Assembly: GCA_951406725.2 (NCBI GenBank)
Contig: OX597826.1
Location: 16,554,001 to 16,618,000 of the forward strand
DNA length: 64,000 nucleotides
Reading direction: 5' to 3'
From: Octopus vulgaris
Lineage: Eukaryota
Below are positions 8,016 to 44,278 of the stretch, one piece after another. Numbering within the stretch: position 1 is the first letter of the stretch; every line of letters begins with the position of its first letter. Under the pieces are notes generated by a model. It was not told the DNA's origin. It saw nothing but the letters and a program-made list of their open reading frames with translations, and did not search any database. The position numbers and the translations under genes are program-made.

Positions 8016-8365
8016 GACGTAGTGGTTAAGAGCGCGGCCTACTAACCACAAGATTCCGAGTTCGATTCCAGGCAGTGACCTGAATAATAATAATAATAAT
8101 GATAATAATAATAATAATAATAATAATAATAATAATAATAATAATAATAATAATAGTAATCATAATAATAATAATCATAATAATAATAATTATTATTATT
8201 ATTATTATAATAATAATAAGAAAACAAGAAGAAGAAAAACTTAGGAGGGAGAACCCTGCTTCGAAATTTCTCCAAGACACCTGATGAATGCTGGAGGGTC
8301 TATTAGCGGAAACGTTGTGTTAACAACAAGCAAGATGTTAACAACAAGCAAAATGTAAATAATGT
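8016..8365 (+). mobile_element. tRNA-derived SINE-like element with internal (AAT)n and a 3' hammerhead-like motif
   Basis: Pol III A-box-like tagtggttaag (8020-8030), B-box gagttcgattcc (8058-8069), (AAT)n 8083-8219, then the motif at 8276-8321. Confidence 0.7.
8276..8321 (+). ncRNA. Minimal type I hammerhead ribozyme-like motif
   Basis: gacac-CTGATGA-a-tgctg[loop]tagcg-GAAA-cg-TT-gtgtt. Canonical core, 5-bp stem I, 5-bp stem II, palindromic AACGTT stem III. Confidence 0.65.
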
Positions 8366-8369
8366 ACTT

Positions 8370-8662
8370 GACTGATGATCGTCAGGTTGTGAGTTGGGTC
8401 TTCTGGCGATGCATTGTGTCCTTGAGCAAGATGTTTTATTTCACATTGCTCTAGTTCATTCAGCTGACAAAAATGAGTAGTATCGTTATTTGAAATGGTC
8501 AGCCTTGTCACACTCTGTGTCACGTGGAATCTCTCTGAGAAGTACATTAAGGTTAGATGTATCTGCAGTGTGGTCAGTCACTTGTACGTGAATTTCACGA
8601 GCGACCTGAGCCGTTGATTGGATCGACTGGAACACTTTTTTGTTGTGTTCTAACCGACGGAA
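8370..8662 (+). mobile_element. SINE (head type D + tail type X), 5'-truncated
   Basis: CORE-like gtgtccttgagcaag. The 3' half (agccttgtcacactctgtgtcac...taaccgacgga) aligns with the tail of the SINE at 17646-18030. Confidence 0.75.
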
Positions 8663-8671
8663 TATCATTAT

Positions 8672-8878
8672 GTGTATATGTATATATATATATATATATA
8701 TATATATATATATATGTGTGTGTGTATATGTATATACATATATATGTTATACATATATATTTATATATATATATATATATATATATATATATATATATAT
8801 ATATATATATATATATATATATATATATATATATATATATATATATATATATATATATATATAAAGAGAGAGAGAGAT
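8672..8878. repeat. (TA)n microsatellite
   Basis: Direct inspection. Confidence 0.95.
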
Positions 8879-8891
8879 TGATAGGTAGATA

Positions 8892-9246
8892 TTCTTTAAC
8901 TTGTATCAGTCATTTGGCTGCAGGCATGCTGCAGCACCGCTTTAATCGAACAAAAGGACCCCGTATCATAGTACTTTTAAAAGCCTATTACTTATTTTAT
9001 CGGTCACTTTTGCCGAACCGCTAGGTTACGAGGACGTAAACACAAAAGCATGGATTGTGAAACTATGGTGGGGGGACAAGCACACACACGTATATATATA
9101 TATATATATACACACGATGTGCAATCACAAGGCTTTGGTCGGCCCGTGGTTATAGTAGAAATTACTTGCCCGAGGTGCCACGCAGTTGGACTGAACTCGG
9201 ACCGGAGCCATGTGGTTTGCAGGCAACCTCCTTACCACACAGCTCC
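8892..9246 (-). mobile_element. SINE family A copy
   Basis: Reverse complement of the family at 35468-35886. Confidence 0.85.
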
Positions 9247-39944: not shown

Positions 39945-41509
39945 ACATATATATATATATGTACATATATATTACAATTAGGAGTTGGGATAACAATTAA
40001 GAGTTGTTTGCAATGATCTGCATATTTTTTATTTATTCAAAAATCTGGCACGTCCTTGTGTAGCTTCATAGTTTTCTCAGATAGAGACGGGCACCAAAAG
40101 TCCATGAGGTGCAGGCTTCGTAGGTTTTTGTTCATATCTACTATGGTATTATCCCTCTGATAAGCAATAAATATAGAGGGTTTTCATTAGTTAATTTAAA
40201 CAATATTTTTTTTGTCAATTAATTTTAAAAAATCAAGAGTTATTGGATTGAAGATGTAATTGTTTATATATTTTTGCTGCAGTTACACATAGGGGAACAC
40301 TTAGATACTTAATAATATACATACATATTCTTGTTATATGTTGTGGTGACGAGGGACTCTCTTAGACATGAATAGGTTTCGATTGGTATGTATTTCAGAT
40401 GTAATGGAATAAATTCCGATGGTTGCGGATTATATCGTCCGCAAGAGTGTTTTTGTTGTTTTTTTAATTGTAATTGATGTATGATGGAATAGTTAACGCT
40501 AACGTTCATAATATAGATATTTGAATTAATTGTCACAGCCCAGCCGTCATTTCCCACAGAATTTCGTCCATCTTTAAAACACGACCCTGAAATGATTTAC
40601 ATATTATTTATATATATTGTGTATATATATCAGAAAATGTATATAAATCGAAACAATTTGTCGGCCTTTAAGTTATTTTTTAAATAATTTTTTTCATGTC
40701 ATATTATAAAATATATTATATTCATAGTATATCCTGTAATATTATAATATAAATAAATTATTGAATTGTCAATAGTATCTCTCTATTCAATGTATCTAGC
40801 GATGCATTGAATATTTATAATCTCCATCCTACAATTATTGTTATTATTATCATTTTTATCCTACATTATAACGGTATGGCCATGATGCAACCGCAAAACT
40901 CTGACTCACTACGCAGTGTCATTAGATGGTAGACAGCATGATGAAATAGGAACTGTACTTGCATACACTAAACACTACCATAAACAAATTTAAAAGATAT
41001 ATATATATAAGTATGCATGTATGTATGCATGTATGTATTTATATATGCATGCATGTATGTATTTCTGTATGAATATGCATATTCAAATAGATCCGTTTAT
41101 GCATACATTTTCCATGTATGCCTGTGTATGCGCACTTGTATGTGCATATCTATCTCTCTAACATGTTCTTATTTGCCTGTGTAATGCGTGTGGGGATGTA
41201 TTCACCACCGATTACAACATTCGCTTTGTGCCAAACGGTAAAATAACCGATTTCTAAAACATACTGTGATTAAACAAGAATAAGAATTAAATAATTAACA
41301 GAGTCTTTATGATTAACTAAAATGTATGCAAGCGCACTACTACATTGATACAACCCATTGGTTAAAACCTATAACTGGACATAAAATGGGTACGGTGAAC
41401 TAGTACCTAGACTTGTGCATAAAAGGAAGTAACTCCACTTTTTATGTCATCGCTATCAGATACAGACTCCCTCTCTCAGTCACATCTTCATGCACTCGTA
41501 CTCCTTTTC

Positions 41510-41580
41510 CACACACACACACACACACACACACACACACACACACACACACACACACACACACACACACACACACACAC
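41510..41580. repeat. (CA)n microsatellite
   Basis: Direct inspection. Confidence 0.97.
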
Positions 41581-43389
41581 AAATAAAGACACGTTTACAC
41601 AAACACACATGTATATCTACTTTACAACTTGCCAACTTGTGTATTAAAAATATTTTATTACATCTGGATTTTTACAATTTATATATATTTTTTCTCACAT
41701 GAAGTTTCTACGTTTGTAACAGTTGTCAAGTGAATGCTTGCATAACAATAGCATTTATGTCGAAGTTCCTCTTCTTCGAACGACATTTGAGTCATAAAGA
41801 TTACGACATAGGAGGATTAAGAAATTTTTTATTGCAACATATTTCTGAATGAATACTGTATGGATCTAATATTTACTGATTGTGTATTCGTATGTGCTAT
41901 GATAAGGAATTTCTACTCTGGTCAATATATAGTTTGTCTTAATTGAGATATTTGTTTGAATAAATTTAATATCTGCTCATATTGCTTTAGCAAAGATTTT
42001 TTTCTGGTGGTCTTTGTATTAATATGATATATAAACTGCATGTATAAAATATGTACCATAACGATTGTCACTATGTTTGCATATGGTTAGGTCGCCATCG
42101 CTGTTTAAATACAAATTTGACTGTCTTAAGATTTGTTTTAGTATTTTGGATTGTAATACGATTTGAATAAATATTCGATCTTTAATTAAATCCTATAATT
42201 TATCTTACACTCTGCTAAGAAGCTAATGTGGTAAGATGATATTAGAAATATCCCGATTATGTTGATTATATGTTAATGTATCCTTCTTTCTTGCATTGCT
42301 CGAAGTTGTTTTACATGTATTCGTTTTCTATAATCTATAACATTTTGTATAAGTAAGTTTGAATATTTATAAAGTAGAAATCTCTTAAGGATTGCTACGT
42401 TTTGTTTTCGGGTATTTATTTTCCTTCACTGCTCGATATTGGATGGATGCTCCATATGTTGCCTGGTGCGATTTAAAACACATTATTGATTTTCCTTCAT
42501 TCTTTAAAAATATATATATCGGCAGTAATCTTTGTGTTAGTTTAATCACGCTTATTGGAGAAATGATAATTTCATGGTGCTTATCTCATTTGGAGAAGAC
42601 GGTTTTCGTTACTGTCGAATTCCAAATTAGCCAGAAATTTTATGTAACTTAGAAAAACCGAATAATATCTACAACTATTTTACATATAACCTCTCTATAT
42701 TTTCTCAAAATTCCGTATCACAATTTTCACTATTCCCGAGTACACAGTTGTTAGAACAAATTTGGTTTGAGAAATAATATATCGTTCTCATCGATGATAC
42801 TGAGACTGGCTACCTACTTGAAATTGCCTCTCAGCGATTTTTGACCGACTATTTGATTCCTGTTTTCCTCATTAATGTGGAATCATTTGTGTGAAGGTTT
42901 GATACAATAAATTCATTTTAGAATAAAAGATAGCAACATTATTCCTAATGTATTTAGTTTCTCGTGTAGCTGGAAACTGGTTTGAAAACAGCGTTAATTA
43001 AATTATTGAGAGGTTGAATAGATTATTGAGTACCAGCTATGATCGGCGTAAAAATGACATCTTTTACTTTCAGCCACTTTATATTTTCACTGCATTGCTC
43101 TTTTAGTTCATTACGAGAGGGTTTTGTATATGTTGGCGATAAACATTGATAGATTTTGTTTCAAATTGATAGTCATTCTACTTAGTGGTAAGTGAATTAC
43201 GATGTTTTAAAACAATGTTGGTAGCTGTTGCATAATGCGGCGATTTATATTGCAAGTATTTCTGAGTAAACGTTTGTATCATTCATCTGCTTAGCAACTA
43301 AATACAGATAATGTTCAAAGACCATAATCACAAGATCACTTTGAAAGATTTAAAGGAACAAGTTGACTTTCCGCAACTTGTTTTTTTTA

Positions 43390-43725
43390 TTTAATCCTGG
43401 TACTTATTCTGTCGTACATTTCGGCAAATCACTAAGTTCCGTGAATGTAACCAAGCCGGTTGTCAAATGGAGAAGACAATCACAAAAGCGAGCGCATACA
43501 TGCAGTCACTCACGCGCACACACACGTACACACACACTCACACGTACACACACGCAAACACACACACGGGAACACGCACGCACATATAAATATAAACGTA
43601 GGGTATACAGTTTCCGCCAAACAAATTGACTCACAAATTCTTGGTGGGCTCGAGGTAATAGTGAAAGACCTCTGTCAAAGGTGTCACGCAGCCGGACTAA
43701 AAGCAAAAGTACGATATTGCACACC
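43390..43725 (-). mobile_element. SINE family A, decayed copy
   Basis: ccggttgtcaa, tacagtttccgcc, aaggtgtcacgcagccggact match the reverse complement of family A. Confidence 0.7.
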
Positions 43726-44241
43726 AACAGGCTGAGATGTAGACTATTTTTCCCAATAATCTTAAAAGTGTGCAAATATTTCCAATTTGTCAACTTGGGA
43801 AGAATATCACTTTCGTGGTGTATTTTCCCATTTCTCTCTTTTGGTGGAATATATTTTGATTCATTCTTTATAATATATCTATCATCTCAGTGACATTCTT
43901 AGCGAACAGTTCAATCAATTGTATTTTCCAGCAGAAAAATAGATATACTCTCTTCCAGCTCTTGATTGTTAGATTCTTTTTTAGTTATTTTGCCATTGTA
44001 GCGTGTAGGGTCTTCCTTAGATACATTTTGAAGTCTCATATCTCTCTTGCGCTTTATTATCCCACGCAATAAATGTATATGTATATCTACTACATATATA
44101 CGTGTATATTTCTACATATTTATATATACACGATCCTTTCTAACAATGGCTTTGCTCGTAAACGAGAAAGCACCTTGCACGTGGAATTTTGGTGATCTTT
44201 CTTTCTTCCTTTGGCCTTTTCTGATGAACTTTTCTGTCTCA

Positions 44242-44278
44242 TGTTTCCGAAGAAGAGCTTTGCTCGAAAGGTAAGACA
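44242..44278 (+). ncRNA. Minimal hammerhead-like motif, degenerate
   Basis: tgttt-CCGAAGA-a-gagc[ttt]gctc-GAAA-gg-TA-agaca; 5-bp stem I, 4-bp stem II, U4C change. Confidence 0.55.

Follow-up and report, generated by a model that had tools for sequence, protein, structure and literature searches.

Minimal hammerhead ribozyme motifs in short repeats of an Octopus vulgaris genome segment: probable end-repeat fragments of Penelope-like elements, one family with a G3-C8 core

We analysed a stretch of 64 000 nucleotides (nt) of the Octopus vulgaris genome (GenBank assembly GCA_951406725.2, contig OX597826.1, positions 16 554 001 to 16 618 000 of the forward strand; hereafter the window, numbered from its first letter), in which six short hammerhead ribozyme-like motifs had been predicted from the sequence, next to a decayed Penelope-like element (PLE). 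Five of the six match minimal hammerhead ribozyme motifs (min-HHRs) and probably derive from the end repeats (pLTRs) of several PLE families, lying as fragments at microsatellites; one of these families, present in high copy number, carries a G3-C8 core. The class itself and its genome-wide abundance have already been published, so the main claim of the original prediction is not new: in 2014, Cervera and de la Pena described genomes with thousands of min-HHRs each, most of them single and associated with truncated PLEs (PMC4209133).

Five motifs match the min-HHR consensus

The window has 34% G+C and is dense in microsatellites and short repeats. Inspection of the sequence finds all six motifs where they had been predicted and with the predicted cores (the loci are called 8276, 21619, 21926, 33733, 36037 and 44242 in what follows):

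8276-8321, plus strand: minimal hammerhead motif of type I in which the core is canonical (CUGAUGA); C3 at 8281, predicted cut after 8316
21619-21662, minus strand: minimal hammerhead motif with the G3-C8 core GUGAACA; G3 at 21658, C8 at 21653, predicted cut after 21622
21927-21964, minus strand: minimal hammerhead motif with G12A besides the core CUGUCGA (A6U); same family as 36037
33734-33789, plus strand: doubtful hammerhead-like motif, canonical core CUGACGA
36037-36072, plus strand: minimal hammerhead motif, core CUGUCGA (A6U); same family as 21926
44242-44278, plus strand: minimal hammerhead motif with core CCGAAGA (U4C) and a GG spacer that is not a palindrome

Stems I and II enclose the core in a type I layout at five of the loci, all except 33733, and an unpaired nucleotide lies between positions 9 and 10.1 at the same five (the extra nucleotide of 33733 sits on the 3' side). 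A G10.1-C11.1 pair is present at five loci, with U.G in its place at 8276, and the spacer between 15.1 and 16.1 is palindromic at four, as predicted. The core is canonical (CUGANGA, GAAA and UH, or with U3-A8) only at 8276 and 33733. Because G3-C8 at 21619, A6U at 21926 and 36037 and U4C at 44242 depart from it, we count these loci as variants and not as plain members of the min-HHR class. The 21619 motif has an extra G, a 5-bp stem II, GAAA and a 6-nt palindrome, and its stem I is just 3 bp in the window copy. The third pair of stem II is A-U at 36037 and G-C at 21926, both sides of the pair having changed. The latter copy has lost G12, a critical hammerhead residue (PMC8495972).

We searched the window with a PLE min-HHR descriptor built on published features (an extra base after A9, a G10.1-C11.1 pair and a palindromic spacer; PMC4209133), the stem thresholds of which were picked with the six loci already in view. 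Allowing at most two departures, there are five matches (by the position of C3 or G3: 8281 plus, 21658 minus, 21959 minus, 36041 plus and 44247 plus), compared with 0.04 on average and never more than one in 300 local dinucleotide shuffles; allowing at most one departure, there are three, compared with a mean of 0.003. None of the 300 shuffles equals the observed five or three, that is, the motifs are denser here than in shuffled controls. A generic type I descriptor gives one match with a strict core (none in any of 40 shuffles) and three with at most one departure (mean 0.4, maximum three, in 40 shuffles). At its loosest setting it gives 32 matches versus 22.8 in shuffles, which is less decisive than the min-HHR consensus. 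No Rfam family matches the window at gathering score, and a search by E-value has no hammerhead among the 150 listed of its 266 matches.

It is exceedingly improbable that the motifs are chance look-alikes thrown up by AT-rich repeats and chosen loosely. The small excess at the loosest setting, the silence of Rfam and the failure of 33733 to fit any descriptor are what such a reading would predict, but no shuffle reaches the observed counts with the published consensus features, and at 21619 the letters of the wider family improve the stems of a motif that sits in a PLE-type end repeat (see below). Chance is already refuted for five loci; for 33733 it is not.

The 33733 motif, which had been grouped with the other five, is doubtful as a hammerhead. 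It is missed by every generic and min-HHR descriptor; its stem II has 3 bp and then an internal loop, an extra A precedes GAAA, the 7-nt spacer is not palindromic, and the sequence prefers another hairpin that competes with the motif. A shrimp min-HHR, however, likewise has an A inserted ahead of GAAA (PMC4209133). In a search with a model of Hydra-type PLE hammerheads (model R1, made from 21 motifs after exclusion of two minimal-type rows from 23), it scores E 2.4. By contrast, 8276 is the top match of this model (E 0.044) and the sole window motif below E 0.1. Further 7-mers of CUGAUGA type lie at 33832-33854 and 44221-44227, near two of the motifs; their stems are not clear.

The six motifs fall into about four repeat types, which agrees with the prediction of several motif-bearing repeat families; at least one of these is very high-copy. 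Loci 21926 and 36037 belong to one family (77% identity over 105 nt), and 44242, which aligns loosely with this family downstream of the motif, looks like a diverged relative; 8276, 21619 and 33733 have no relatives among the window loci. A perfect microsatellite is found at most 135 nt away from five of the six loci (two of them sharing one repeat), compared with 23% of random positions within 150 nt. The 8276 motif, for example, is directly beyond an (AAT)n array. The sequence comparison thus far supports a reading of the five motifs as PLE-type minimal type I hammerheads in repeat families, predicted to require dimers.

Matches outside the window were also sought. Viral contigs were scanned twice, with 24 and 36 matches, none of them like the window motifs; one of these 60 loci held a loose hammerhead fold, off the matched site, and we attribute these matches to chance. 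The family motifs have no match in the metagenome collection and none in the prokaryote collection.

A family with G3-C8 as its core state

Parts of 21478-22420 occur in contig runs labelled as five organisms. We aligned the contigs of four runs to 21479-21700 at 80% likeness, with variants listed from 4%; 13 113, 5334, 6383 and 1338 contig records were aligned (organisms A, D, E and A, respectively). The family is very high-copy, the depth of alignment being no copy number in itself. In all four runs there is no variant at or above 4% at the core (21652-21658), nor at the positions of GAAA, palindrome and cut site (21620-21631); GUGAACA with G3-C8 is therefore the state of the family among the aligned contigs. 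The remaining nine core letters are canonical.

The family letters also repair the defects of the window copy. The letter at 21648 (87-94% of depth) turns the U.G pair of stem II into C-G, giving a full Watson-Crick stem II of 5 bp; the letter at 21662 (90-99%) turns a stem I mismatch into G-C; and common letters upstream lengthen stem I to 7 bp. The only common stem variant, at 21619 (16-44%), retains a U.G pair, while one position of loop II varies in 59-98%. Three CpG positions in stem II are changed in 1-5%, as expected of dead copies.

We regard G3-C8 as a new and well-supported natural core variant, for which cleavage is at most predicted. In the literature searched, which leaves Lunse et al. 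2016 uncovered (a paper that may hold such cores), a natural G3-C8 core was not found and the swap occurs as an engineered mutant only, for example in PMC3884650.

It is unlikely, though worth serious weight, that the variant cores are dead descendants, i.e. that these PLE lineages have lost cleavage and keep the fold because it binds a protein or acts as a promoter, or simply by inertia. Three distinct departures (G3-C8, A6U and U4C) in one window would fit such decay, changes at A6 and U4 strongly lower activity (PMC3088659, PMC7151607), and cleavage is dispensable for insertion in vitro in an anole PLE (PMC11167929). Drift alone, however, with no selection on the active fold, would hardly produce a swap on both sides that keeps the 3-8 pair; the G3-C8 family is canonical at its nine remaining core letters; and a natural U4C core is still functional in a viroid (PMC3088659). 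Loss of cleavage suits the A6U family better than the G3-C8 family.

The 21619 unit is built like a PLE end repeat

The G3-C8 motif lies in a short unit that has an inverted partner:

21478-21662, minus strand: short unit with the build of a PLE end repeat (pLTR), containing the motif, a start codon at 21566, 29 codons and a tail
21478-21532, minus strand: tail of ~55 nt present in one arm only, as seen from the sequence and from contig ends
21663-21769, plus strand: inverted, 5'-truncated copy of 21533-21640, predicted to form a long hairpin that would sequester the 3' half of the motif

The two arms (21533-21640 and 21663-21769) differ by three mismatches, and both outer ends of the inverted unit adjoin (TA)n. 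Family copies, judged by loose contig ends, stop at 21532/21533 before TA-rich (TA)n DNA, or near 21480; upstream of stem I, contigs of all four runs agree for ~16 letters and then scatter. Inverted truncated copies, a one-sided tail and insertion at microsatellites or (TA)n are marks of PLEs (PMC8557442). Given the one-sided tail, the (TA)n flanks and the fact that most contigs do not fit two places, we reject the reading of the hairpin of 21533-21769 as a miniature inverted-repeat element of a DNA transposon. The three arm mismatches fall exactly where the letters of the left arm differ from those of most family copies, the right arm having the family letters.

The ATG at 21566 lies 55 nt beyond the predicted cut and starts a frame of 29 codons, 28 of which (window 21480-21566, minus strand) are identical to the N-terminus of a 325-residue gene model of Octopus sinensis, XP_029654200.2. 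Pfam matches of this model, to methyltransferases, begin only at residue 229. Residues 1-222 resemble a PLE N-terminus, ending in a GxKF/Y-like stretch. A GxKF/Y motif is named for PLEs in PMC8557442. The gene model is likely to be a chimera of ~220 retroelement-like N-terminal residues and a methyltransferase domain, probably an artefact of gene prediction, possibly an exonisation. An open frame that runs across the G3-C8 motif was considered as coding and rejected, as the protein match starts only at 21566. No parent with a reverse transcriptase (RT) was found in searches for a parent of the O. sinensis N-terminus.

Since a long frame begins in the unit, with its first 29 codons, the unit is likely, judging from its sequence, to be the end repeat of a protein-coding PLE and not a retrozyme. 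The original prediction had the families as non-autonomous, which is not supported by 21619, the only family that was traced.

Several observations weigh against the PLE end-repeat interpretation. The putative PLE identity of the frame from 21566 rests on a resemblance to PLE motifs; protein searches find no named relative of the O. sinensis N-terminal region, nor does this region match the Hydra-type proteins compared; and the tail, at 55 nt, is longer than the 30-40 nt described for PLEs. The monomers of the motifs do not fold notably better than shuffles (z from +0.3 to -1.7), and self-cofolding does not give the palindrome dimer as minimum (cofolding is uninformative here). The A6U core is seen in only two copies and U4C in only one. 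Within the G3-C8 family, the aligned contigs contain no true two-sided covariation, repair of the stems by majority letters fits any repeat descended from a stem-bearing ancestor, and at 21655-21662 the summed depth comes to about a tenth of that of the 3' part, so that many copies must be shortened or unaligned and copies with other cores may be under-counted.

Proposed mechanism

We propose that in a tandem transcript of the parent element, two neighbouring end repeats would pair via the palindrome and so build helix III. The paired motifs would cut slowly, probably with help from the protein of the element, as the published work on PLEs suggests; with the G3-C8 swap, the active fold would keep its 3-8 contact, and cleavage would be less fast. 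RT would start inside the end repeat at two sites (the ends seen here at 21533 and 21478) and copy back across the uncut ribozyme as far as the 5' end of the RNA or less. The outcome would be solo copies of ~200 nt, sometimes with an inverted copy, and most genomic copies would be single, decaying and unable to cut.

An alternative, to which we give a rather low probability, is that the short units stand by themselves as non-autonomous elements (solo end repeats or retrozyme-like), being transcribed, cleaved and recopied in trans by PLE proteins, possibly via RNA circles. Many copies share one 5' boundary (the ~16 agreed letters in four runs), the 21619 family is very high-copy, animal retrozymes have been argued to stem from PLE end repeats (bioRxiv 10.64898/2026.07.22.740005), and non-autonomous PLE derivatives occur in Chlamydomonas. 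The shared boundary also fits RT run-off at a fixed 5' end of the RNA, as would occur at a transcription start. The 21619 unit contains a coding start, and the window has no head-to-tail tandem hammerhead units. Genome-wide, the contigs provide only a weak test, since they collapse tandems: among 15 of 34 joints listed, no head-to-tail joint is common, each being found in one contig per run.

Extending the PLE end-repeat interpretation, it is conceivable but unlikely that octopus PLE lineages carry variant cores family-wide (G3-C8, and likely A6U and U4C) as active, slow, protein-assisted dimers, and that their solo repeats of ~200 nt, in tens of thousands and missed by Rfam and standard descriptors, are transcribed and remobilise themselves. 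If true, cephalopod genomes would contain a hidden layer of ribozymes, and a G3-C8 hammerhead would exist in nature at mass copy number. The suggestion that these repeats are a large source of self-cleaving or circular RNA is not supported by the copies in the window, which are single and off-consensus, with no tandem arrays: single, damaged copies would mostly not cut. One copy lacks G12. In another, 21619, the long hairpin (-160.8 kcal/mol) sequesters the 3' half of the motif, so a transcript of this locus could not form the ribozyme.

The decayed PLE nearby is probably not the parent of the motifs

A decayed PLE had been placed at 18050-20600. We confirm it as follows:

[quoted passage not shown]

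The region has 2194 protein matches at E<=0.001, the best being an 806-residue protein with RT and a GIY-YIG endonuclease, of which it covers residues 145-795 in eight pieces (tblastn). The CxCx5C linker, together with DKT and RW motifs found in its relatives, places it in the Hydra clade by the criteria of PMC8557442. The DKT and RW/RWK-like N-terminal motifs are present in the best relatives, while the window copy aligns only from residue 145. It shares with the Hydra-clade PLEs of PMC8557442 the linker, the C-terminal GIY-YIG and a preference for (TA)n; Hydra-1 of Octopus bimaculoides and its hammerhead are given in File S2 of that paper. Pfam detects GIY-YIG weakly in the best relative (E 0.012) and has no match in the window copy. 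A word index returned no longer homologues, and no solved structure was found for the Hydra-type alignment.

We compared the hammerheads of this type at 79 related metagenome loci, from the best 80 of 135 confirmed. There are 26 strict-core hammerhead matches in these loci, compared with none or one in each of 10 shuffles; with slightly looser stems, 26 of the 79 loci have a match. The cores are canonical, nearly all have a stem III of 3-4 bp, and none of those listed has G3-C8, A6U or U4C, whereas the five window motifs are minimal. Two loci (L084:2752-2791 and L116:313-352) hold minimal-type canonical hammerheads within Hydra-type PLE loci, perhaps from neighbouring PLEs of another clade. 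In the window, neither the descriptors nor model R1 find a hammerhead in the decayed region 18040-18430. At 18140-18200 (minus strand), a near-core 7-mer, GAAA and a palindromic spacer could be a decayed hammerhead; its stems do not form and it has no R1 score.

The 3' region of the window PLE has no sequence in common with the six loci. With its relatives carrying a different type of hammerhead, the element is thus unlikely to be their parent, and we reject it as such; it is also broken. The predicted link between it and the motif families is not supported. What 18430-20598 does show is that PLEs live in this region of the genome.

Other features of the window

Further repeats are found in the window. 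The segments 12254-12468 and 15527-15741, each of 215 nt and separated by 3058 nt, form an inverted repeat with 95% complementarity and are probably the two ends of a DNA transposon. Two minus-strand frames (1292-1870 and 7240-7695) resemble remnants of Tigger/pogo and mariner transposases, and another (53897-54454, minus strand) resembles the C-terminal region of a long interspersed element (LINE). Near the latter, 53002-53305 and 54753-55072 form a direct repeat of 69% identity. At least two families like short interspersed elements (SINEs) have several copies each: one at 35477-35870, 26888-27201, 44466-44854 and 8890-9243, the other at 36191-36574, 57793-58016 and 61280-61850. Finally, 47929-48731 is an (AGT)n array of ~800 nt with a higher-order period of 114-120 nt.

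Comparison with known systems

With the G3-C8 family, nature itself would confirm the 3-8 pair, at high copy number, in a third Watson-Crick combination. Both bases are changed and the pair is kept, which suggests selection on the active fold; this bears on the role of PLE hammerheads, given that cleavage is dispensable for insertion in vitro. The A6U and U4C sister lineages would make a graded natural series. As variant cores escape Rfam and CUGANGA descriptors, counts of hammerheads in animal genomes may be too low. The giant squid paper lists 235 Rfam hammerheads (PMC6962438), and ribozymes are not mentioned in the main text of a 2026 octopus repeat annotation (PMC13282606).

Known natural core variants (U3-A8, A6C and U4C) have lower activity; they are rare singles from phages, bacteria and viroids, and the parts of these papers covered here mention neither G3-C8 nor A6U (PMC3088659, PMC7151607). 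Non-LTR retrozymes (PMC7229834; bioRxiv 10.64898/2026.07.22.740005) are likewise short repeats with type I hammerheads and tied to PLEs. They consist, however, of tandem units of 170-400 nt with mostly canonical hammerheads and abundant circular RNA, whereas the window units are single or inverted and minimal, and the 21619 unit has 29 codons. The text of the retrozyme preprint considered here names no mollusc.

The PLE min-HHRs of PMC4209133 are closer. They have the same type I layout, with little or no helix III, an extra nucleotide between 9 and 10.1, G10.1-C11.1 and a palindromic spacer, and the same occurrence as many families per genome, mostly of single copies. A natural U3-A8 swap is known from a Schistosoma min-HHR. 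The 56 representatives in Fig. S3 of that paper differ from the window motifs in having CUGANGA or UUGANAA only, with no G3-C8, A6U or U4C and no cephalopod among them.

The closest counterpart of the 21619 unit is the anole Poseidon PLE PAc (PMC11167929), which likewise has the ribozyme, the start of the open reading frame, two RT starts and the tail in one end repeat. In the anole element, the two internal RT starts bracket the tail and RT copies mainly RNA that has not been cut; cleavage by the ribozyme depends on the presence of the protein, and no reads end at the cut site. The two differ in that the anole reading frame starts at stem II, while that of the 21619 unit starts 55 nt after the predicted cut, and in the origin of the core: C3G/G8C is an engineered rescue in the anole element, partly restoring cleavage, whereas in the 21619 family it is the natural state. 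The 21619 unit fits the plan of the anole PLE.

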